Positions 15,756 to 52,258 of a stretch of 64,000 nt of DNA are shown here, one piece after another (positions within the stretch are counted from its first letter, which is position 1; every line of letters begins with the position of its first letter). A program made the translations under genes and the position numbers. The notes beneath the pieces were generated by a model that made no database searches, was not told the origin of the DNA, and saw nothing but the letters and a program-made list of their open reading frames with translations. The stretch is from Dictyostelium discoideum. Taxonomy: Eukaryota. The stretch spans positions 6,624,001 to 6,688,000 of the forward strand of contig CM000151.3 of NCBI GenBank assembly GCA_000004695.1, read 5' to 3'.

Positions 15756-16386
15756 TTGGTTGTATAATTATTTGTGTGAGAAAAAAAATAAAAAAAAAAT
15801 AAAAAAAAATGAAGAAAAAAAAAAAAGAAAAAAATTTGAAATTTTTTTTTTTATTATGTTTTTCTAAAAAAAAAAAGGGTTCTTTGAAAGTTAAAAATAA
15901 ACCCAAAAATTTTTCTCTAAAATCTGAGAAATTTTTTTAATCACATAATTTATATAGATCTGTATTTGAAAAAAATTAAAAAATATTAATCGGAAAAAAA
16001 AAAAATAAAAAAAATACTTTTTTTTTCCAAATTATATCTTTTTTTTTCTTTATTTTTTTGTTTTTTTTTTATTTTTTTTTTTGAAACAGTTGTTTCTCTT
16101 TGGGATACTTATTCTCGTTTCATTTTTATTTTTTTTTAATTCGACACTGTTGGTTTTTGTTTTTTGTTGCTGTTGCTATTCTATGTTTGTTTGTTTTGTT
16201 TTTTGTTGCTGTTGCTATCCAATGGTTGCTTTGAGCCTAAGGCCTCAGAATACTCAATTCCAGCACTTTAGAATCAAACTCCGGTCTTCCTTTTTTATAA
16301 TTTCTCCTTTTTCTCATTAAATTTTTTTTCAAATAATCAATTTTTTCTCTTATAAATTTTAGCCAAAAAAATCAAATTTCATCTAA

Positions 16387-16459
16387 GCCCGTTTAGCAAA
16401 GTTGGAATTGCGGCAGCCTTCTAAGCTGCAGGTCGTGGGATCGAGACCCACAATGGGTG
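16387..16459 (+). tRNA. tRNA-Arg (anticodon UCU), copy 1
   Basis: Cloverleaf read by eye: acceptor GCCCGTT/AATGGGT (two G-U pairs), A box TAGCAAAGTTGG, D-stem GCAA/TTGC, anticodon stem GCAGC/GCTGC with loop CTTCTAA, T-arm GTGGG-ATCGAGA-CCCAC. An identical copy lies in inverted orientation at 23152..23224. Confidence 0.75.
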
Positions 16460-16490
16460 ATATTTTTAACTGGGAAATTTATAGATCGCA

Positions 16491-16503
16491 GGTTCAATGT
16501 CTG
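16491..16503 (+). promoter_or_regulatory. External B box (exB) downstream of tRNA-Arg copy 1
   Basis: GGTTCAATGTCTG lies 32 bp after the tRNA 3' end. Dictyostelium tRNA genes typically carry an extra B box about 30-40 bp downstream. The same spacing is seen at 22448..22459 (-), 23108..23120 (-) and 56481..56492 (-). Confidence 0.6.
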
Positions 16504-16649
16504 ATATGAAGATACACGTGAAAAGTAATTCATCCTTTTCTATCCTTAATCTCGGTCAATTTTAACCAATCTTTCAAAAAAAATCACCAATCCACCACGA
16601 TCTACAGATCTAACTTACCAAATCGCCGATTCAAAGGAATCCCATCGAG

Positions 16650-17903
16650 ATGAATTCCTACGCAGACGCGGCTAAAATGGCCAACCCCTCCACCCATATG
16701 GACGAGGCATCAGAGAACTTCATTAAGGAATTCTCCACAAAAACAGCAGAGATAAAGGAGACCTACCCCAAATTATCAATAGGCCTCAAAGACATCTCCA
16801 AATACTGCGAGACCATATTGAACATGACTGCTCTCTCAACCTACGAGAAAAACAACGGATTCTACCCAATTACACTCGAATTCCCCAAAATGGATCTCAT
16901 GGGGTTAGAAGAAATGAGAAAAACACTCTCAAACTACGATATCCCAATCGACAAGATATACATAGGCAAAGGAACTAGAAAAACGATCCACCTGATGATT
17001 AAAAACGAACAATCTCTCCTAAATATCATTAGAGATAGAAGCAAATTGGGAACCTTCATCACCTCCAGTAGAGACTACCACGTCCTCACAGGAAGAGTAA
17101 GAATTCCAAGAGAAAAGGCAGGAATAGTGGACGCCCTCATCAAAACTGCCTTTGCAGAAGAAATACCCTATGCAATATACCATACTATATACTCCACCGA
17201 CCACCTCCTAGTATTCGGTCTAATAGAATGCAAAATAGGCGATCAAATGAAATCTGGCCAACACAATACAGAAATCGCCAACTTTACCATCAGAACGGCC
17301 ACCAAAACCTACTCCTCACAAAAGAAAAATAAGAAAGTAGAGTCAAACAACACGGAAGAACCATTAGAAGATGAGATGACAGATGATCCTCCCAACATCC
17401 AAAACAGGATAGCAATCAAATCCTCTCAACCAAAACCACAACAACAAACATACAACCCAGCAAACAATAAGTCTGATAAACAATCAACCCAAGAGAAAAA
17501 AGCCCAATCAAAAAAGTCCTCTCAACCTCTTCCCCCCAAAAACCAAGCAGAATCTCAATCTGTCAAACCCACCACAACCACTACCACAACATCCAACGCC
17601 ATCCAAAAAGACAATGCCAACAAAACGAGCACTAACATCCATTCATCCTCGGAAAACAGAGAGAAGACACCAAACATCCCTCCATCACATAAACGCAAGA
17701 ACGAGGAAATCCACTCAAACAACGAGGTCACCCAACTCTCACCAACAATAAACAGAAGCAACCCTTACATCCCATCCACCCCTAAGACACCTGTCAAAAA
17801 AGAAAGGAAAGGAATCATTGAGAGCTTCATAGAGAGTATCTACCCTTCACCATCCAAACCGCAGCTATACGACTCCCAAGAGGAGATCGATATCATCTCA
17901 TAA
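16650..17903 (+). CDS. Retrotransposon ORF1 (417 aa)
   Basis: GC-richer than the host DNA. Basic/Ser-Thr-rich C-terminus. Its stop overlaps the ORF2 ATG (TAATG). Confidence 0.75.
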   Translation: MNSYADAAKMANPSTHMDEASENFIKEFSTKTAEIKETYPKLSIGLKDISKYCETILNMTALSTYEKNNGFYPITLEFPKMDLMGLEEMRKTLSNYDIPIDKIYIGKGTRKTIHLMIKNEQSLLNIIRDRSKLGTFITSSRDYHVLTGRVRIPREKAGIVDALIKTAFAEEIPYAIYHTIYSTDHLLVFGLIECKIGDQMKSGQHNTEIANFTIRTATKTYSSQKKNKKVESNNTEEPLEDEMTDDPPNIQNRIAIKSSQPKPQQQTYNPANNKSDKQSTQEKKAQSKKSSQPLPPKNQAESQSVKPTTTTTTTSNAIQKDNANKTSTNIHSSSENREKTPNIPPSHKRKNEEIHSNNEVTQLSPTINRSNPYIPSTPKTPVKKERKGIIESFIESIYPSPSKPQLYDSQEEIDIIS

Positions 17904-20900
17904 TGGTAGTAATCAAAATCAACCAATGGAATGTCAGAGGTTGGGGCACTGACACCTCCTTCAAAAACAAAACAGACTTTATCAAATCCCAATCCCCCCC
18001 AAACTCATTGGCACTAACCATAGTCAATGAACTCAACGCCGACGCAACACAAGCACACCAGCTATTTCCTGGCTCCATCATTAGCGCAACCAACAGAGGC
18101 AACGGAATAGGAATACTAAACCACAACAACCAAAACATAAAACTCTCACCAATATTCATAATAGAAGGTAGACTAATAATATCAGACATTCTAATAAAAG
18201 ATACCACAACGAGAATCTTGGCCATATACGCCCCGGCCCAACCTGATAAGGGAAAAATACTAGCTTGAACACTAAACAAACACTTGAACAACCAATACCA
18301 CAACCTAACGTCTAACCCTAAAAAAAACATCGACATCATAGCAGGTGACTTCAATTGTTTAGACTTCAATGACAATCACACATCAAATGACGACCAAGGC
18401 AACTTGACAACACAATCCCCAGATGAGATGGCCACAGTAATTGAAGCCATCAGAATTTCAAATAACCTAATGGATATGGACCAACTAAATAAAAGACCCA
18501 CCTTCTCAAGAACGATACACAACACAAACAATAACCTCACAAGAATCTTGGAAAGGAGACTAGACAGAATATACCTTAACAATAGCATAATCAACTACAG
18601 TCAATTATACTTAAGGAACCTAATCCCCCCAAAAATTAACGACATACCTCTATCAGATCACAACTTCCTATCAACCACCTTCACTCTACCCAACATACAG
18701 ACGAACATGCGCAGATGGAGATTAAAAAAATCCTCAATCCTCTCAAGCATAATGCTTAAGAAAATAGACATCCTACTTAACGATTATTCAAGGGAGCTGT
18801 CATCCAACCATAACTCTATTTCCTTCTCTCAACTCAACAGCTTACTGAACAAAATAAAACAACTATACACAGAATTTCAAAAACAAAACGACTACAACAA
18901 TAAGGCAAACATCAAAAATCTAATCTCCCTACTAGAGACAGAATTTAAAGACCAAGCCTTTGCAACCCTTTCAGCAATAAATGAATCTAAAAGAAGAGAA
19001 GAACAACTTAAACAAGAATTGAACAACTATTGCGAAGAAACCTCACTCAAGTACATCTCCGCGAGAATCAAGAAAAGACACAATGATTTCACCATCAACG
19101 CAGTAAAAGATACACAAGGTAGAACAATCAACAAACAGGAATTGATCGAAGAAGAATACGTAAAATATTACTCAAATCTTTATGACTACAAAGAAGATGA
19201 CCCACCATCTCATTATGAAATGTTGGAAAATTGGACAGTGACCAGGGACTCAACATGGGACAACCTTGAAAATGAATTCACATCACAAGAGATCCTAGAA
19301 GTAATAAAACAATTGAACCCACACAAATCTCCAGGCCCAGATGGAATTCCAAACTTATTCTACATAACACACAAAGAAAAACTAGCTCCAATACTGGCCT
19401 CAGCATTCAACGACACTCTAAGAAATCCTCATCTAATTAGCAAAAATTACAAAGAAGGCCTCATTATCACGATACCTAAAAAGGGAGATCCCGAACTAAT
19501 CAAAAACAGAAGACCAATTACACTGGCCAACTGTATATATAAAATCCACTCAAAACTAATAAACAATAGAATAATCCCAATACTAACGAAAGTGATCAAC
19601 CACAATCAAAAAGGTTTCGTACCAGGCAGATTCATTCTCGATAATATCATATCAATTAACGAATTAATCAACTATTGTAATGATAAAAGAATTAACGGAA
19701 TAATTACACTATATGATTTCGAAAAAGCTTTTGACTCGATCTCACACGGTTCAATACTCAGATCACTACAACACATCAACATTCCAACCAATATAATCAA
19801 CCTGATAATGAATCTACTCACCAAATCTGAGGCAAGAATTGAAATTAATGGTAGAACTACTATACCCTTTGAGATCAAAAGAGGAGTTAAACAAGGAGAT
19901 CCACTATCACCCACCCTGTTCGTCCTTGTAATAGAGGCTTTAGCTAGAAAAATTTTACAAGATGACCGAATTACTGGCCTTCCTCTAAACAACAGCAACC
20001 ACAGAGAGAAATTCCAAAGCTTTGCAGACGATTCGGCTTCAATGGTCCCAGACTCTCAACAACTTGAATTAGTACTACAACACTTCAATTCATTTTGCAA
20101 AGCCACTTCCTCAAAACTAAACATCGACAAATCTTCATCAATTCTTATAGGCAACCCAGACAATACCAACCAAAGAATTCCAATATCTACAAATCCAGAA
20201 AGATACTTGGGATACTTCTTCACAGGCAAAGGGATAACAAGAAAAATGCCAGAAATATTAAACACAATAAGATCATCCTTAGTACTATGGAAAACCACTG
20301 ACTCAACAATCAAAACCAAAACCAACATCCTCAAAGCATTCGCACTCTCTAAATTAACCTACTATTCATATGTAGAGAACTTTAAGGAAGAGGAATTAAA
20401 CCAAATCAATAAATTGGTCGAATGGTTTTTATCGGCACCTAACAACAAAAATGCTAGTGGATTTCAAGTTATTAATTTAATGAGAACCAAAAGAGCAAGA
20501 TACCCACTAAATGTAGGGGGCTGGAACATTTGGAATATAGAATTGAGACAACTGGCGCAGAAACTTTGGATCATAAACCAGTTCATCCTAGCACTAGAAA
20601 CCAAACAAACAAACTCATCTCATCACAAAAGCTGGGAATATCAGATCCAAAAAAACAAATTCACATCCAGATACCTAAAAGAAAACTTAGACGAATGGAA
20701 CAAAATAAGAATAAAAAAAGCAATCTTCAACAATAATCTCACATCCATAAAAAACGAAAATGGACAACCACTTTCACTGGCAGAATGGTATACCACAATT
20801 CAAGACCAAAATCCAACCATCCCTAAAACGGAATTCCAATCATCTCTAAACTTAAGAGGCTACAGCTATAATCAACTCTTCAACAACATACTGAAGATAA

Positions 20901-21493
20901 AAGACCCTAAAACAAGAGACACAATGTTTAGATTCCATGCCAGATGCCTTCCAATAAACTACCTTCACAACAAACAATGCCCACTCTGCAAAGAAGATAT
21001 GAGCAAAGACCCATACGGTCACCTGTTCTTCTCATGCAAGAAAACAAAACAATTCATAAAAATAAATAAACTCAAAAATTTCATCTATATTACCACAGGC
21101 AAAGGTAAAAACTGGCACCATACAAACTTTGAATGGAACTATAAAGCAATAGACTATGATCTAACTAGATCATTCGCATATAGAAACCTAATGGCCCTTA
21201 TCCTCCACAACATTTGGATTTGGATTTGCAATCAAATATACAGTGAAGATCCTTTAACAGATGAATCACTATCATACAGCTCCCTTCTAAAGAAATGGCA
21301 CAAATTGGCCACTCTAGAATACATCAAAAAAGCAAAAGATCTGAAAAACTTATCAGCAAAAGACCATAATAACTTCAAAGATCCTAAGATCCTTCTCACT
21401 TCAACGATCAAGCTAAGAAAAACAACAGCTAATTACTATTGTATTCCAGAATCATCTCTCCCAAATATTATATCTTTTGATCAATTCATATGA
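17903..21493 (+). pseudogene. Retrotransposon ORF2 (endonuclease-RT-zinc finger) interrupted by a single in-frame TGA at 18266..18268
   Basis: Track ORFs 17903..18268 and 18284..21493 are in the same frame (both coordinates are 2 mod 3). They are separated only by TGA, within the endonuclease domain. Confidence 0.75.
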
Positions 21494-21590
21494 TTAAAAT
21501 AACCCTTCAGCTTAAATGATAAGCCTTTAAATAAATATTAAATAAAACTCGTATTAACACAGATGGACATATATCAATCTTGTTAATCCA

Positions 21591-21626
<36 letters not shown>

Positions 21627-21822
21627 CCTACAGTTGATCAAACGGATACTAGATACAGAAAAACATATCCATCATCAATCTAACATCAACTCCCAAATAT
21701 TATATCTTTTGATCAATTCATATGATTAAAATAACCCTTCAGCTTAAATGATAAGCCTTTAAATAAATATTAAATAAAACTCGTATTAACACAGATGGAC
21801 ATATATCAATCTTGTTAATCCA

Positions 21823-21860
<38 letters not shown>
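21459..21860 (+). repeat. Tandem duplication of the element's 3' terminus: the last 35 nt of ORF2, the 3' UTR and poly(A), present twice
   Basis: 21459..21625 and 21691..21860 are near-identical (ctcccaaatattatatcttttgatcaattcatatgattaaaataaccc...aatattaaaaaa(A)n). A 65-bp unique spacer separates them. Both copies lie inside the TSD-bounded element. Confidence 0.9.
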
Positions 21861-21864
<4 letters not shown>

Positions 21865-21871
21865 GAAGATA

Positions 21872-22150
21872 AATTAAAAAATCAAACTTATTATACCACC
21901 ATATATGAAGAAAGATCATGAAATTAACATAGACTACATTCATATAAGATTTCACACTTCGTATGGTGCTATAGATCTATATATTATGACCTTTCAAGAC
22001 TTTTCTCATTAAAAAACTTAAAAGCAATGATATTTCACTAGGTATGGATATGGATTTGCAATCAACTATACAGTGATGACAAAATTCAAGCCACAAAATT
22101 AGACTATGATATGATCCTTAAAAAATAGTACAAATCCGCACCTTAGTTTG
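21872..22150 (+). mobile_element. Diverged remnant of a related retrotransposon ORF2 3' region
   Basis: 22050..22085 (ggatatggatttgcaatcaactatacagtgatgac) matches ORF2 at 21220..21250 (tggatttggatttgcaatcaaatatacagtgaagatcc). 'agactatgat' is also shared. The rest is degenerate. Confidence 0.45.
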
Positions 22151-22490
22151 CTTTATAATTCCTCATTGGGTATATATATTAGAATTTTTTTTTTTTTTTT
22201 TTTAAATATTGATTGATCAGTGTTTATCCATTAAAGGAAATAAACAATAAACCATTAATGGTTTTATATGTGGATTTTAATTTTAAAACATAGTGTAGTT
22301 ATAGTTATTATTATTATCATTTTTATGTTAGTCCAAAAAAATTAAACAAATCAAATAATAAAATTAACTATTTTATTAAATTGGAAAGTTGATTTAAATC
22401 TTTTTCATTTTATAGAGCATACGATTTCTCAATCATAGTTGAATATTGAGAATCGAACCTGTTATCAGTAAATCTTACTGGGGAAAACAT

Positions 22491-22573
22491 TGCAAGAGGC
22501 GAGATTCGAACTCGCGAACCGAATGGATGAGATCTTAAGTCACACGGATTTAACCAGACTTTCCTACCCTTGC
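22491..22573 (-). tRNA. tRNA-Leu (anticodon UAA) with a long variable arm
   Basis: Minus-strand read: GCAAGGG-TA-GGAAAGTCTGGTTAAATCC-G-TGTGA-CTTAAGA-TCTCA-TCCATTCGGTTC-GCGAG-TTCGAAT-CTCGC-CTCTTGC-A. T-arm GCGAG/TTCGAAT/CTCGC, a 12-nt variable arm, and an exB box GGTTCGATTCTC at 22448..22459. Confidence 0.65.
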
Positions 22574-23151
22574 TTTGGATGGAAATTTTATTTTATTGGT
22601 TTTTAAACCTGGCACCATCATCCCATAGAAAAACTAAAAACTCTCATCCATAAATCATAATTGAGAAGCAATTGTGTATAAAATACATTTTTGATAGATC
22701 TATAAAAAAGAAAAGATCAGATTCCAAAAAAAGATTGTTTCACCAAATTATTTTCTATGGTTTGCTAGGCATTTTCAAAACAAAAATAATATTTTTTTAA
22801 TTTTTTTTTTTTAGGTCATTTTTTCCCAGTTATTTATTAATGTTTGGGTTATTACTCTTTCTTTTAAAATAATTTAATGTTTGCCATCAAATCTATCAAA
22901 AATATAATTTAAAAATTTCTTTTTTAAATTGGACTATGTGGTTTCAATTTTTTCACTGATATTACTTTCATATGCATTATTTTATAATGGTCGTAGAAAT
23001 ATTTCATTGTTTAAAATTTATATGTAAAAAAAGAGAATATATTGGAATATCCAAAATCACTTGGAATACTAGACCCAATTATGTGATGATGTTTTTGAAT
23101 GAATGATCAGACATCGAACCTACGATCAATATTTTCTTTGGCATAAAGATT

Positions 23152-23224
23152 CACCCATTGTGGGTCTCGATCCCACGACCTGCAGCTTAGAAGGCTGCCG
23201 CAATTCCAACTTTGCTAAACGGGC
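23152..23224 (-). tRNA. tRNA-Arg (anticodon UCU), copy 2, inverted relative to copy 1
   Basis: Exact reverse complement of 16387..16459 (73/73). The downstream exB box (rc GGTTCGATGTCTG at 23108..23120) is conserved, but the spacer between has diverged. Confidence 0.75.
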
Positions 23225-24009
23225 TTTGATGAAATTTGTAAATATTTATTTAAAATTTATAAGTTGATATTATAAAATTATAAAATTATTACACATCGAT
23301 CGAAACCCTATGATACTATTATCGGCATATTTTTTAAATGAGATACACATTTTGGATATTAAATCAAAGCTCTCTTTATTTTAATTGGAAGAGACTCTTT
23401 TGGAAAAAAAATTTGGGAATTAAACAAAAGTCCTCTTTAAATTGGGTGAAAAATGGATAAATTGAAAAAAAAAAAAAAACAATTGAGTTTTATGGCAAAA
23501 GTCTTGATTAAAAAAAAAAATAGTGACAAACTTAAAGATCTTTTTGGTAGTGAGATATTAAATTTTTTTTTTTGTTTTTTTTAAATTTTCCTTTTTATTT
23601 TAACTTTTCCAAAAATTTGGTTATTTTTTTTTTTTTGTTCCTCCAAAAAAAGATTTTTTAATTGAAAAAAAAAAAATTTTCAAAAAAAAAAAAATAAAAA
23701 TAAAAATAAAATAAAATAAAATAAAAAAAAAAAATAAAAAAAAAAAAAAAAAGAAAACAAAAACAAAAACAAAAACAAAAATTTTAAATACTGTTTTAAT
23801 CAGTTAATCTAAGAGTAAAACATAAAAAAAAAAAAAAATAAAAACAAAATAAAATAAAAACAAAAAAAAAGAAAAGAAAAAAAAAAAAAAAAGAATTTTT
23901 TAAAAAAGAAAATTTCCTCTTAGATGAAATAATATTATAATAATAACAATCAGTTTTGTTTGAATAAATAAAAATAAAAAAAATAAAATTTATGTTTTTA
24001 AATTTTTAT

Positions 24010-44242: not shown

Positions 44243-45752
44243 TAGATAAAAAAAAGAATTCATTCAACTTGTAATTGCCACCAAAATATTTAAATAATAA
44301 TAATTTAAAATAAAAAAAAAAATAAATAAAAAAATACAAAATTAAAATCTTCTTTTTTCTTTTTTCTTTTTTATTGTATTTTAAATAAAGTATAACTACC
44401 ATAATATTCATATTTTAATATTATTTAAAAAAACATTTTTAATAATTAAAATATCTTACCAAATGATTGTCTTTTATCACCAATTTTTATAATTTCCAAT
44501 TAATTAATTAATGGGGTGGAGGGGTGGGGGTGGGAGGGGTAAAAAAATTGATATTTACATAAATCATAATTGTACATGACAATTTTTTAAAATAATTAAT
44601 TTGATTGATTCATCATAAAAAAAAATTAAATAAAAAATTAAAAAAGAAAAAATTAAATCGGCAATTTTAACAACAACAAGAACATTTCGATAAGATCATA
44701 CATTAATTGCAATCACACACAAACACCCAAAACTTAATTACGCACGTACACCACGACACACTAACATAAAAAATTATTAAGAGAAAAAAAAAAAATAAAA
44801 AAAAAAATAAAAATTAAATAAGTAGAAAATAAATAAAAAATTAAATCACTATTTCAAACATAGCATTTTATTAAGTTACAATTTCTGAATAACAATCACA
44901 CACTTTCTCACTCTCTACCAGTTTTGTTCTATTTAACAAATAAATACATTGTGGTGGGTGTGTGAGAGAGAGTGAGGTGATAGTGTGTGACAGTGTGTGT
45001 GTGAGTGGTATATATTAACCTAATTAAAAACTTTTTTCTACACATCAAACAATATTAAAAGGTGGTAAAAATCACTAAATAAAATTAAAAACCATTTAAT
45101 TTTTATCTCGAACAACAACTCCACCACACATATATAGATAAAATACATATAGGTCTACCCCTTTCTTTTTTTTATTTTTTATTATTTTTTTTTTTTTAGT
45201 TTTTTTTTTATATAAAAAAAAAAAAACAACATATAACTGATGATAAAATTTTAACCTTGTTTAATATTATTTTTAAAAATTTTTTTATTTTTTTTTATTC
45301 ATTATTTATTTTTAAAATATTACTTTAAATTAATATTAAAACAATTATTATAGCTTGTGTATTTTATCTGTGCATAAAATTAAATATTAATAAATTAAAA
45401 TTACAATTGTGTGTAATTTTTTAAAAAAATTAAAATAATTATTTTCAATAGCTAATAATAACAATTCCTTTTATAATTTTAATTTTAAAAATAAAATAAA
45501 ATAATTTTAATTTGAATTATTTTCCAATTAAAAATAAATTATTTAATATATATATATATATATAATTTTATTTTAATAAAAAAGCAATAGAAAGTGATAT
45601 AGTTGTATATCCTAATTATTTTTAAAAAAAAAATTATATTTTTAAAAAATTAATATATTAAAAAAAAAAAAAAAAATAACAAAAATTAATAAAAATAAAT
45701 AATTACTTAAAAGTTATATATACTTAATTATTTTTTTAAAAAAAGAATAAAA

Positions 45753-46914
45753 ATGGGAAGCCAATTTAGTGTTTTAAATAGAAAATGGTTAATTGAAAGA
45801 AGTATTATGATTGAAAAAAGGAAAAGAAGATCAAATAAATTAATAAAAATTTTAATGATGGGTAATGAAAATTCAGCTAAAAGTACATTTGCTAAAAAAG
45901 TTAAATCAATTTATCAAAGTGATAAAATTGAAAATTCCGATGCCAATTCAATTTTACCATATATTAAATTATATTTATCTAATAGTTTCAAAGATGTTAT
46001 AAAATTTATTCAACAACATCCACAATCACCAGATACAAAACCAATGGTTTCAACACAATTAGGAATAATAGCATGGGATAAATTATCAAGTTTTAATTAT
46101 ATTCCATTTAATTTTAAACCAACAAAAGAATTGGCAAAATATATTTATGATATTTGTCATGATCCACTTTTTAAAAGTTATATTTATCCAATAATTTCTT
46201 CAAAAAGAGAAGATGCATTTTAGTATGTTTTATTATAATAATAATTTTTTTAATTTTTTTTTTAAATATAGTTATTAATTATTTAAATTTAATTTTATTA
46301 ATAGTTTAATTGAAAATTGTAAAAGAATGTCAAATGATGATTATATACCAAATGATGAAGATATAATTAGATGTTCAAAAAATAATCAAAGTGGAGTATT
46401 TGATACTAAATTAGAGATTGGAAAAAGTGAATTTGTATTTGTTGATACAGGTAATCAAAAATGTGATAGAAAGAAATGGGTTCATCAATTTGAAGATGTT
46501 GATATAATATTATTTTTTTTGGCTTTAGATGAATTTGATTTACCACCTGATGAAATTAAATCACAATCACAATCAGTTCATGATTGTTATAATAAATTAA
46601 ATGAAAATATATTAGTATTTGATGAAATTGTAAATAATCACTTCTTTTCAAATACACCCGTAATTGTTTTATTTAATAAAAAAGAACAATTAATTGAAAA
46701 ATTAAAAACAACAACTTTTTCACAACATTATCCAGATTATCAAAGTAATTCAAATAATCCAAACGACATTTTTTCTTTTATTTCAAATCAATTTAAATTA
46801 AGAGATCATTTTCCATTAAACAAACGTTTATTTATTCATTCTTTTAATTCTTCAGATACTAATCAAATCGATTTCTTTCAATATGTTAAAAAAATATTAG
46901 AAGATACAATTTAA
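45753..46914 (+). CDS. Heterotrimeric G-protein alpha subunit, divergent, 2 exons, about 359 aa
   Basis: Exons 45753..46222 (donor GTATGT) and 46305..46914 (acceptor taatag). MGSQFS (myristoylation-type N-terminus). Switch/G-box regions DEDIIRCSKNNQSGVFDTKLEIG, DTGNQKCDRKKWVHQFEDVDIILFFLALDEFD, VLFNKKEQL. The P-loop reads IKILMMGNENSAKST rather than the usual GAGESGKST. Confidence 0.75.
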
Positions 46915-47138
46915 ATAATAATAATAATGATAAAAAAAAAAAAAAAAAAAAACAATAAAAAATAAATAATAAAACTAAACTTGTAAATAATTTCTTTTAT
47001 ATATAAGATATATACTTTTAAGTATATTTTTTAACAATATTTGTTTTTATTTCTCATCAAAAAATATACAACATATATATATAAAAACAAAAACCTTTGC
47101 TTTTTTTTTTTTTTTTTTTTTAATTAGAATTTAAATTT

Positions 47139-50100
47139 TTAATTTCTTCTTTTTCTTTTATTTAAAATATAATTTTCTTGTAATAATTGGGACTGAGAAG
47201 GATAAAATTGTTGTTTAATATATTTTGAAGTAAAAGTTGGAATTAAAGAAATGAAAATCATAATTATTACCATTAGATAGAATTGAAGTAATGATAATGA
47301 AAAATTAAATACTTGATAAGATTGAGGCATTGAAGGTAACATAGAATTTGTAATTAAAGCTATAATTATATATAATAAAATACTACCCCAAATACCAATA
47401 TGAACAATGAAATTCCAATATTTTATATCTAATGCTGCTTGAAGTAATATTGAAATCACAGAGAAAGAAGCACAATAAGAACCCATTATAGCAAGTCCAC
47501 CAATTTTACCATACTGGTTTAATATATTATCATCTAAAAATAAAAGATATAAACCAAAATACATTACTACCGATTGATAAAGTCCACCTAATACTGATCT
47601 TGCAATTGTAAGATACTGGAATTGTTTACCATTTTGAACCTCTAAAAATAAATGTGGATTCTTTTCTAAAACTCTTTCATTTACATCTTTTTCAAAAAGT
47701 GCCATGAAATAAGGTGGAATTGCAGTGATTACAGTATTAAAAGATGTAATGATAGCATCATCGAATAAAGTTTGTGATGACCAACCACTATGAATTGAAA
47801 ATAGAAATTGAATGAAAAAGAAGGTCATATTCTTATAAAATGAGTATCTAATACATGCAGCATTCCTAATCATTGAATAACGACCATGAATTGTAATTAA
47901 TCTTGATAAATGTCTAAATCTTAATAAACTATAGTCAGATGCACGTGATGCTTGTGATCCTTCATTACCAAATATTCCAATTCCAATATTTGCTTCTTGA
48001 ATCATTGAAACATCATTTGCACCATCACCAATTGATAAACAAACCTCTTTTGTATCCTTTTTAACCATCTTTACAATTAATGATTTTTGAATTGGTGTAA
48101 CTCTACAACAAATTACTGAATGACATTTCTTTGCAATTGATAAAAATTTATTTTCAAATTCTAAAAATATAAATATTAATGATTCACCATCAATTACTAA
48201 TGAATAATTATTATTATTATTATTTAAATTATTATTATTATTATTACTATTATTTAAATTATTATTATTATTATTTTCAATTTCATTTAAATTATTAATT
48301 ATATTATTTAATTGTTGTTCACAATTATCACGTGAATTTGAATTAATAATAAATAATTGATTTGAATGAGAAAGTAATTTACAAGAATAACCAATATTAA
48401 TTGCAGTTTCTTGTTTATCACCAGTTATAATCCAAACTTTAATATTTGAATTTAATAAAAATTCAATTGTTTCAGGTACACCATCTTGTAATTTATCTTC
48501 AATAGCAGTACAACCAATTAAAGTTAAATCATTTTCTAATTGGTTATTTAATTCTTCAATTTGCTCTTCCCTATTTTCAATTGAATTTAATATTGAATTA
48601 TATTTTTCAAACCATTGATTAAATTGATCAATTTCAATTTCTTTCATTGCTAATATTAATGTTCTTAAACCTTCATTTGAAAATTCTTTAATATGTTGAG
48701 TTGTTTTTTCAATTATTAATTGATTATTATAATTTATTAAACCATTATTATTGATATTATTATTATTATTATTGATATTATTATCTTGTTTTAATCTTGA
48801 CATCATTACAGAATCAGCACCTTTTGAATATAAATAAATTTTATTTGTTTCAATATCTTTTAAAACCACTGACATTCTTCTTCTTTCAGATGTGAAATCC
48901 ATTGAAGTTAAGAGTTTAAAAGTTTTTTCTTTTTTTAAAATTTGGATTTTAATTTCACCATTATTTCTCTCTTTGAAAATGAATTGATTTAATTTTGAAC
49001 AATTTAATAAAGAAATTTCATCGGGTGATGGTGATTGATAAATTGCAATTCCATCTTGATCTAATTCAGAAACAGCAGAATGACAAGTTGTCATATTAAT
49101 TAAAAATTCTTTTACAAATTTTTGATCAATAGTTTCACCACCTTCAGATACAATCTCTTCTAATTCCATTGATGATGATTTGTTTTTAATTTCATTTAAT
49201 AATTGTGATTCATTTGGTGATTGATAAATTTTACCACCAATTGAACATTTTTTAAAAATCATTTTATTCTCTGTTAATGTACCAGTTTTATCAGAGAATA
49301 TATATTTAACCAATGCTAATTCATCATTTAAATTACTATTTTTTACAGTCATATATTTATGTACAATTTTATTTTCTCTACCACTACCACTACTGTCGTC
49401 GTCTTTAAGAATTTCTGATTTTAAATTATCTTTTGATATTGATTTTGAAATTGATGTTGATGATATTGATTTTGTAAATTGTTTTTGTTGTTGTTGTTGT
49501 TGTTGTAATTCTAAATCACCATTATTTTGATTTTGATTTTGATTTTGATTATTTTGATTTTGTTCATATTGTAATAGTTGCTTTCTATATTGTTTTTCTT
49601 TATAACTCATTAATAGATCGAATTGCATAAAACCACCTTGTGAAACTTTAACAATTTCCAATGTAATTAATAATGACATTGGTACTAAAAACGATAAGTA
49701 TGCAAAATAAGCGAAAAATGTTTTAACAATTACTAATCCAATTGAGTCTGGTTCTTCATTTATCCAAAGATACCAACTTTTATTAGTTGTACGTTCTGTT
49801 ACTAATGTTCCAACAATTGTTGATATTATTACTAATATCATTTTAAATATAAATATACCAATAACTGATTTACTAATCATTTTTTCAACTGTTGAATATT
49901 TTGATGGTGGACTCTTTTGATTTAAACTTAATTTTGTATCTCTACCACAATAAACTACAATACCATAAATAAATTCTGTATTTCTTAATGTTGATCCTCT
50001 TAATAATAATTGTTTTTCTGATAATGATATTGTTGTTATTTCTGTTGTTGTGGTGGTTTTTAAATTTTCTTCAATATTATCATTATTATTGTTTTCATTG

Positions 50101-51100
50101 TCATTTTCTAAATTTAATATACCTTTAAATTTATATAAATTATTATTTGGGAATTCACATTGAATATTACCTTTTAATTTTATAAATTGTTGTTGTTGTT
50201 CTTGTTGTGATTCATTTAAATTTAATGATATATTTTTAAATTTTGAATGTGTTTCATTACATGATTTAAAAATTTTTAAATTTGATTCACCATCGAGTTC
50301 ACTAGTTTCTACAAAACATACACCATCGCCTAATGATGAAGAACTTAATAAAATTATATCTGCAGGAATCGATTGATTATTATCTATCTTTATAATATCA
50401 CCAACTTTTATATTTTTACTTTTAATTAATTTAAATTTTGATGATTCTATATCATAATTTTCTTGTTGTTGTTTTTGTGGTAATGGTGTTGTTGATGATG
50501 ATAGTGGTGGTTGTTGTTGTTGAGGTATTGGTTTTGGAAGTTGATATATTAAATATTCTTTATAATTTGATGATTTATCCGCTCTATATCTTTTAAAATC
50601 TTCGTACGCTTCTTTAATAGCTGTTAACCCAACAATCAAACCTAATGGTAATATAGTAGTTGATGGATCCAATGGACTAACTTCTGGAATTAATGTTATT
50701 ACACTAACAATTACAAAATAAATCTTTTTTTTGAAAAAAAAAAAAAAAACAAGAGTTAATTAATAATTTTATTTTATTTTATTTTATTTTATTTTATTTT
50801 ATTTTATTTTATTTTATTTTATTTTATTTTATTTTATTTTATTTTATTTATAATGTTATTTATTATATTAGTTTATATTACATTTGTATATTTTTTGAAT
50901 TGTTCAAATAAATTTTTAAAAATAAAATTATATCTTGTATATTTTGTGGTTGAAATTTCATTATCAGAAAATAATGATTTTATTTTTTTTTCGTTGTTAT
51001 TTGAAAAAAAAAAATTATTTTTAAAAGTATTAAAATAAATATTTGGATATGTCGTTCTCTTTTTTTTTAAATTTCTTTTTTTTTTATTAAATATTTTCAT
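47139..51100 (-). CDS. P4-type ATPase (phospholipid-transporting flippase), 2 exons, about 1267 aa
   Basis: Exon 1 51100..50882 (MKIF...ISTTKYTRYNFIFKNLFEQFKKYTN; donor GTAATA). Exon 2 50723..47139 (acceptor aaaaaag; IYFVIVSVITLIPEVSPLDPSTTILPLGLIVGLTAIKEAYEDFKR...). Motifs DKTGTLTENKM, TGDKQETAINIG, GDGANDVSMIQEANIGIGI. The track ORF lacked the TM1-TM2 exon. Confidence 0.8.
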
Positions 51101-52258
51101 TATTTTTTATTTTTTATAAATATTTACATAAATTGGTTAATTGAATTAAAAAATAAAAAATAAAAAAAAATAAATACACTTTTGACAAAAAATTATTAAC
51201 AAGCAGGAATGGAAAAAAAAAAAATTATTTTTTAAATTAAAAATATTATTATTATTAAAAAAAATCAAAAAAAAAAAAATTATTTAATAATAACACTATT
51301 AATAATAACACTAATAATAATAATGACAATTGTTTATTTTATAATAATTTTAATCTTATTTTAAAGTAAAATTTTTAAACGCAATGGAAAATAAAAATAA
51401 TAAATAATAATTATAAAAAAAATAAAAAAACACAATTTTTGTGGTGATTTTTATTTGTTAATGAATTGTACAAATTAACTTATTTTTTTTTTTTTTTTTT
51501 CTTTTAAATTTTTTTTTTTTTCTTTTTTTTTTCTTCACATGTGTAAGGGTGGCGATAACCCCTTTGATATTTTTAATAATTTTTTTTTATTTTTATTTTT
51601 ATTTTTTTTTTTTCTTAATAACAACATTAATTTAATGAAATGTCAAATGGCGATAAAAAAAAATTTTTTTTCATTTTATTTTTAATGTCATCTGATAGAA
51701 CCATCATTCCGAATTTTTTTTTTAACATTAATTTTATGGCTATAAAAAAAAAATGAAAAAAAAAAAAAAATAAAAAAAAAATAAAAAAATATTTTTAACT
51801 TTTTATTTGAAAAAAGTTAAATGATGGTTTGGTTCCCAAACAGATGTATTAATTATGTAATGAAAACCTAAAATGCAGTTTGTCAGTTTTCCAATTACAA
51901 AAAAAAAAAAAAAAGGAAAAAAAAAAAAATAATTATGGAATTAATTGATTATATTTTGGCAAAAGATCTTGAAATTTCATTTATTTGGTTATTATATCTT
52001 TTTAATTATTATTATTGTTTTTTTTTTTTTTTTTTAATATTTTTTTTATATTTTATCTATCCAGTTTTTTTTATAAAAACGAAAAAAAAAAATTACTCAT
52101 TAAAATATTTCAATATATAAAGTTTTTAAATAACTTAAAAAAAAAAAAAAAACAGATAATTGATCACTCTAATAATAAAAAATAACAAAGCTCCACTTTC
52201 CAAATTCTTTGAATAAATAAAGAAACACTTTTTTTTTTTTTTTTAAAGGGTTTTTTAT

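Follow-up and report, generated by a model that had tools for sequence, protein, structure and literature searches.

A TRE3-type retrotransposon behind a tRNA-Arg(UCU) gene of Dictyostelium discoideum, with a shortened 5' end and a composite 3' end

Retrotransposons of the TRE3 type are known for their attachment to tRNA genes; publications from 1999–2016 describe their targeting downstream of these genes, use of B boxes, repeated hits and tandems. TRE3 elements sit behind tRNA genes, 40–150 bp downstream, the range for 60 copies of TRE3-A being 14–228 bp (PMC5911963, PMC5006619), and either the internal or the external B box (exB) can be used (review; PMC5911963, PMC5006619). The published exB reads GTTCRAnYC, lies ∼41 bp downstream and accompanies 66% of D. 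discoideum tRNA genes (PMC3159450). Dd_TRE3-A measures 5,229 bp, TRE3-B 5,279 bp and TRE3-C 4,734 bp (PMC5006619). Here we describe an element at 16515..21860 of a 64,000-nt stretch of Dictyostelium discoideum DNA (assembly GCA_000004695.1, contig CM000151.3, positions 6,624,001–6,688,000 of the forward strand; hereafter the window, whose own numbering is used throughout). With a probability of about 90%, it is a TRE3-A-type, L1-like element with an apurinic endonuclease (APE) and a reverse transcriptase (RT) that used target-primed reverse transcription to insert behind a tRNA-Arg(UCU) gene, on its downstream side and co-oriented with it, as members of the family normally do. With TRE3-A (formerly Tdd-3) it shares two open reading frames (ORFs), of which ORF2 is in the –1 frame, the order APE-RT-zinc finger (ZF), a poly(A) tail, a target-site duplication of the kind that varies in length, and a co-oriented position downstream of a tRNA gene within the published range. 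It differs in being 5'-truncated by ∼32 nt, in lacking 38 ORF2 codons and in a composite, duplicated 3' end.

The tRNA-Arg gene (anticodon TCT) occupies 16387..16459 on the + strand, as found by ARAGORN. The element behind it is bracketed by two copies of the 11-bp sequence ATATGAAGATA, the left at 16504..16514 and the right at 21861..21871 (both read on the + strand). From 16515 the element reads CACGTGAAAAG (beginning CACGTG), its poly(A) run stops at 21860, and the right copy starts exactly there. The repeat cannot be extended: G stands before the left copy, and the next base is C after the left copy and A after the right one. In the whole window, on both strands, ATATGAAGATA occurs exactly twice, versus 0.10 occurrences expected from shuffles, and it is absent from 57.9 kb of background. 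Since its chance per position is only ∼2.6e–6 given the base composition, and since it is found at these two sites alone, a coincidental match at both junctions is very unlikely. The original prediction had itself allowed for such a coincidence, with the true ends of the element lying elsewhere. One may say for it that the genome is AT-rich and that, of its 11 bases, 6 coincide with the element consensus. However, the right copy begins where poly(A) ends and the left one is present singly, as target DNA, in two element-free strains, and we regard coincidence as practically out of the question. The repeat is thus no chance match, and the predicted coordinates of the element, of both copies and of exB proved exact by sequence reading and ARAGORN; the same holds for the orientation, as the + strand encodes the ORFs and the element terminates in poly(A) on its right side.

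Two divergent D. discoideum assemblies, L002 (GCA_054859385.1) and L008 (GCA_054859355.1), with ∼92% nucleotide identity in the flanks, carry the same tRNA-Arg gene and exB, followed by a single ATATGAACAT (ATATGAAcAT) and then by TTTTTAAAAG. Neither a TRE3 nor an older TRE3 fragment was found behind exB in L002 or L008. Elements without long terminal repeats (non-LTR elements) do not excise, so that on this 5' side the state is the ancestral, unoccupied one, and the single ATATGAACAT marks the left 11-mer as target DNA. No orthologous tRNA-Arg site was found within the reachable sequence of L009 ('cf. discoideum').

The element is a non-LTR retrotransposon of the TRE3 type, as predicted: its ORF domains, poly(A) and 98% identity to other D. 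discoideum copies agree in this. Three such copies served for comparison, the tandem pair L004a and L004b and the copy L005, which follows a tRNA-Thr gene; nucleotide identity to the L004 and L005 copies is 98.1–98.2%. By this identity the near-full-length TRE3-A-type part spans 16515..21625 on the + strand and comprises a 5' untranslated region (UTR), ORF1, ORF2, a 3' UTR and a 29-nt poly(A) (21597..21625). ORF1 (16650..17903, + strand) is an open reading frame of 417 aa that matched no Pfam family. ORF2 (17903..21493, + strand) is in the –1 frame relative to ORF1, which it overlaps by TAATG; this frame is the one expected of TRE3-A. RVT_1 covers aa 524–771 of ORF2 (E 1e–33), Exo_endo_phos matches as a whole domain at aa 8–253, weakly (E 0.0016, under the curated cut-off), and a zinc knuckle is seen as a CX2C...HX4C motif. 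Both the layout APE-RT-ZF and the shift to the –1 frame fit TRE3-A (PMC5006619, PMC5911963). The proteins nearest to ORF2 are D. discoideum RT proteins with 94–98% identity, listed in the database as 'hypothetical protein' throughout, and its cluster at 90% identity has 79 members and is the most abundant ORF2 cluster. Without its tail the L005 copy measures 5,228–5,229 bp, which matches the published TRE3-A length; from this match and from the abundance of the cluster the subfamily is most probably TRE3-A.

The nearest described relatives fit less well. TRE3-B/C/D have the same architecture and target preference, but to a second subfamily present in L007 the main element is only ∼67% identical at the nucleotide level and 45–65% identical in ORF2 amino acids. 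TRE5-A (DRE), a related element of the L1 clade, resides in the same genome and likewise targets genes that RNA polymerase III (Pol III) transcribes, but TRE5 lies ∼50 bp upstream in opposite orientation and has A/B/C modules, whereas the window element lies downstream and is co-oriented. ORF2 relatives at 33–34% identity are probably TRE5. AX4 protein DDB_G0276387 (P0136, 1021 aa, chromosome 2) is identical to ORF2 residues 176–1196, including the diagnostic 38-residue deletion, so this insertion is already present in the published reference genome. We see in it an ordinary representative of a family that is well described, and one that carries an annotation already. Assemblies of Dictyostelium citrinum, too, have annotated ORF2 proteins with at least 90% identity to that of TRE3-A, and the TRE3-A subfamily is therefore either common to both species or was recently exchanged between them. 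In addition, the N-terminal 219 residues of ORF1 (16650..17306) are 40% identical (E 7e–53) to the second subfamily (L007 3685..4350), in contrast to the statement that TRE ORF1 proteins show no mutual similarity (PMC5006619).

The element had been called complete, which does not stand. As a full-length TRE3-A with intact ORFs it fails at the 5' end, through a deletion, through an in-frame TGA and at the 3' end. Complete 5' ends, as in L004 and L005, read (A)9–10 CCGTACCGC(G/T)ATCAAGAGGATAC-AAGATA-CACGTGAAAAG, while the window copy begins at AAGATA/CACGTG and thus lacks, compared with the other copies, the first ∼32 nt, (A)9–10 CCGTACCGCGATCAAGAGGATAC. AAGATA (16509..16514), the last 6 nt of the left copy of the duplication, is common to the target and to the TRE3-A consensus. 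As it fits both alike, the 5' boundary may lie anywhere within 16509–16515, an ambiguity of 6 nt. A second departure is a private in-frame deletion of 114 bp, or 38 codons, in ORF2 (at 21125..21126, + strand) relative to L004a, L004b and L005; the segment missing from the window starts and ends with GAAT. This deletion was either acquired later or inherited.

The TGA in the endonuclease region of ORF2 (18266..18268, + strand), the only stop of this ORF, has a different standing. The locus is also present in a second assembly, L001 (GCA_054883475.1), at 99.75% identity and with six differences from the window inside the element. There this codon reads TCA, as it does in other copies, ORF2 runs uninterrupted over 1196 codons, and ORF1 differs from that of the window by one residue; an exact-protein look-up of the window ORF1 gave no match. 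Four G's within 37 bp (18250, 18251, 18267 and 18286) are private to the window, L001 and two other copies having A, A, C and C at these positions. The 'dead' ORF2 possibly reflects either a very recent cluster of mutations or base-calling errors.

The 3' end, too, is not canonical. The last 139 nt of TRE3-A with A29 are followed by a spacer of 64 nt (21626..21689, + strand), and then by the identical 139 nt with A32, a second 3' terminus at 21690..21860 (+ strand) that matches 21458..21625 at 100% identity across 168 nt. The result is a perfect 168-nt direct repeat at the 3' end of the element; the second unit joins the spacer at CATCAATCTAACATCAA|CTCCCAAATATT. In each of the three other copies the 3' end is single. 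The same composite structure is present in L001, an independent assembly, and it is therefore no assembly artefact. Along the spacer, a co-linear alignment to the very 5' terminus of TRE3-A has ∼75% identity and a local score of 42, a value that none of 1000 shuffles reached, and it ranks best among 2831 windows of 90 nt. No other match to the spacer was found in the window or in the comparison loci. The spacer was also considered as the 114-bp segment lost from ORF2 and this was rejected, as the two do not match. As far as sequence can tell, 21626..21860 thus looks like a piece resembling the 5' terminus fused to a 3' terminus.

How such a unit arose can be read in several ways. It might be a second 3' end made after integration, at the DNA level, when poly(A) tracts slipped or underwent unequal exchange and filler DNA was added. 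The complete identity of the two 168-nt copies is what one would see then, and the presence of the structure in L001 agrees with it. However, slippage would not be expected to add a 64-nt filler that resembles the 5' terminus of the element itself, and L004a and L004b, which are unrelated copies, have the identical 139-nt 3' end too, so that identity is no sign of a recent local duplication; we find this origin decidedly improbable. A different view of the 235-bp unit (21626..21860) makes it, as a diverged TRE3 5' terminus fused to the last 139 nt of TRE3-A with poly(A), a hitherto unrecognised mini-TRE3, non-autonomous, similar to short interspersed elements and mobilised in trans, or equally the fossil of the TRE3-A RT jumping end-to-end between two RNAs in the course of one integration; this, too, would be rather surprising, if a little less so.

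Two successive insertions would be the main competing solution. The 235-bp unit would have been the earlier arrival and the source of the 11-bp duplication; TRE3-A, 5.1 kb long, would then have entered exactly at the 5' edge or the 5' oligo(A) of this unit, using the AAGATA microhomology and leaving no visible duplication of its own. That one tRNA gene is targeted repeatedly, the newer copy of the tandem lying nearer to the tRNA, is documented (PMC5006619 supplement), and L004 shows such a case. Moreover, canonical TRE3-A 5' ends start with a run of A9–10, which would offer a T-rich priming site, and the spacer begins like a true element 5' terminus right after the first poly(A). On the other hand, the large element would be left without a target-site duplication, while L004b and L005 have duplications of 10–16 bp; in the L004 tandem the copies stand 33 nt of target DNA apart, versus none in the window composite; and no mobile 200-nt TRE3 derivative is known, nor was one found in the other comparison loci. 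We hold this two-step history to be unlikely but deserving attention. The duplication may have been made by the 5.1-kb element or by the 235-bp terminal unit. Together with the 6-nt ambiguity at the 5' junction, this takes away the base-pair resolution that the original prediction had claimed for the insertion.

For insertion of the TRE3-A-type element by target-primed reverse transcription, the following course may be proposed. A first nick would have been made in the bottom strand at 16503|16504, +44 from the tRNA gene, ∼55 nt past the internal B box (16438..16448) and 2 nt past the exB core (16491..16501), and the nicked 3' end would have served as primer for cDNA synthesis, with the poly(A) tail as the starting template. 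Cutting of the top strand 11 nt further on would give the ATATGAAGATA duplication, and the cDNA end would have been joined, ∼32 nt short of the RNA 5' end, via the 6-nt AAGATA microhomology. The target would have been the junction of the exB flank with an older fragment of another TRE3 subfamily. Most likely, one and the same event brought in the spacer, the second 3' terminus and its poly(A), by template jumping of the RT or by way of a read-through composite RNA; such a single-event origin is favoured because one duplication encloses the whole composite. We infer both this origin and the order and position of the nicks.

Several observations speak against this picture, or at least against its details. 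A single event requires either a mini-element RNA or two template switches. The origin of the spacer is uncertain, as its identity to the TRE3-A 5' terminus is ∼75% and the runner-up among the 90-nt windows scores 41. The letter A of the subfamily was inferred indirectly. Examination of L002 and L008 yielded no allele that is unoccupied and shares both flanks: past ATATGAA(G/C)AT both carry an unrelated segment of 4.2–4.6 kb. Their downstream flank is not orthologous, and the empty site is hence validated on the 5' side only. The check in other strains that had been suggested for this insertion therefore covers the 5' flank, where the target sequence is single. Between the exB of tRNA-Arg and that of tRNA-Leu (window 16514..22441) the corresponding intervals, L002 3659..8281 and L008 2642..6807, contain genes of the epimerase/dehydratase family, whereas the window and L001 hold only TRE3 material and ∼270 bp of unassigned sequence. 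The difference of 4.2–4.6 kb could stem from a deletion associated with the TREs or from a gain in the other lineage. The tRNA cluster is structurally polymorphic among D. discoideum lineages.

Turning to the promoter elements at the target, the internal B box of tRNA-Arg(UCU) is GGATCGAGACC (16438..16448, + strand), and a T5 run at 16463..16467 (+ strand), 3 nt past the gene, is a putative Pol III terminator, as T-runs generally are for this polymerase. The exB region GATCGCAGGTTCAATGTCTG, with the extended motif GATCGCAGGTTCAA, spans 16484..16503 (+ strand) and is recognised by motif rarity, conservation and the published consensus. Its core, the 11-nt box GGTTCAATGTC (16491..16501, + strand), lies 32 nt after tRNA-Arg. 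Within it, GTTCAA, which starts 33 nt after the tRNA, fits GTTCRA of the consensus, and positions 8–9 (GT) differ from YC. The extended motif GATCGYAGGTTCRA occurs twice in the window, at 16484..16497 (+) and 23114..23127 (–), versus 0 expected, and both sites are ∼25–30 nt downstream of a tRNA-Arg(UCU) gene. The motif is unchanged in the orthologous loci of L002 and L008, lineages that are ∼8% diverged, and the tRNA-Thr gene of L005 has GGATCGCAGGTTCGAAACC at the equivalent relative position. Conservation in the paralogue and in two strains speaks for a function of this exB; an exB call from 16491 onward is reasonable, and the box would be a putative TFIIIC site.

The duplication had been predicted to begin one base after exB. 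This is correct for a box of 13 nt (GGTTCAATGTCTG, 16491..16503); with the 11-nt box (16491..16501) it begins 2 nt past. The element itself starts 55 nt past tRNA-Arg, on the same strand. For comparison, the L005 copy starts at +67 after tRNA-Thr, with the first nick at +51 and a 16-bp duplication, and it begins 33 nt past its exB versus 13 nt for the window copy. Measured from the core of the internal B box the first nicks are at 64 nt (window) versus 71 nt (L005), and from the exB core at 11 versus 26 nt. With n = 2 copies this gives a hint that the tRNA body, not exB, sets the insertion distance. Given the published range of 14–228 bp and the use of either box, the placement against exB is not special and should occur frequently.

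The flank downstream of the insertion does not consist of naive DNA. The right 11-mer is followed by AATTAAAAAATC, part of an older, degenerate fragment (∼21871..22165, + strand) from the C-terminal region of ORF2 of the second TRE3 subfamily, truncated at both the 5' and the 3' side. It was recognised by tblastn, with 44% amino acid identity to ORF2 aa 1055–1136 and stop codons present, and by nucleotide identity, which reaches 83% to the second subfamily in L007 (9650..9923). Of the BLAST matches within the window, we used the 168-nt repeat, a 127-nt match at 71% and the tblastn match; most of the rest are meaningless matches of poly(A). Presence of this fragment, which the target abuts, means that the same tRNA-Arg gene was hit before. 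Tandem TRE insertions are documented (PMC5006619 supplement). The head-to-tail pair of TRE3-A copies in L004 (1..7310) has its 33 nt of target DNA between the copies, and the distal copy has its own 10–11 bp duplication, (A)TAATGCATAA. Between the older fragment and the exB of tRNA-Leu, the interval 22166..22441 includes a T20 run (22186..22205), and its part 22207..22286 is 72% identical to L004 9839..9767, likewise located downstream of a tRNA gene, there tRNA-Thr. The interval could be a remnant of another tRNA-associated element; its reading as a minus-strand TRE3 3' end belonging to tRNA-Leu was dropped, as it has no significant TRE3 similarity.

Some features of the wider locus should be mentioned. 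A second, inverted tRNA-Arg(UCU) paralogue lies at 23152..23224, and the pair, including flanks and exB, forms an inverted repeat (16344..16513 on + and 23106..23262 on –; ∼88% identical, 6.6 kb apart). Between the two sits tRNA-Leu(UAA) at 22491..22573 on the – strand; it is the nearest other tRNA gene to the element, with its 3' end 630 bp from the element 3' end. Outside genes the window has ∼20% G+C. The ORF of a flanking kinesin matches AX4 DDB_G0276369 on chromosome 2 (8.48 Mb) with 100% identity, and the flanking genes for proteins of 546 aa and 125 aa have exact protein matches in one near-identical assembly only, the other strains being reached through homologues. In D. firmibasis (L003 570..8057) the orthologous tRNA-Arg (window 16385..16469) is fused directly to the orthologue of window 51.9–44.8 kb (44830..51869), which implies an inversion or rearrangement with its breakpoint at the tRNA-Arg gene.

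Insertions of human L1 that are 5'-truncated and show microhomology, 3' transduction by L1, and template jumping by the RT of R2 and L1 are possible analogues of what is seen here. By this comparison, the 6-nt microhomology, the slight 5' truncation and the extra sequence between two poly(A) tails inside one duplication would be shared with them; unlike in these systems, the extra sequence in the window appears to be itself built from element termini. While placement of the element adds nothing special to what is known of TRE3, the locus yields an example of a microhomology-mediated 5' junction, four probable base errors or private mutations that make a false 'dead' ORF2 in a reference-like sequence, and structural polymorphism of a tRNA cluster. 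Finally, the composite 3' end could be of relevance for template switching by the reverse transcriptase of TRE3.

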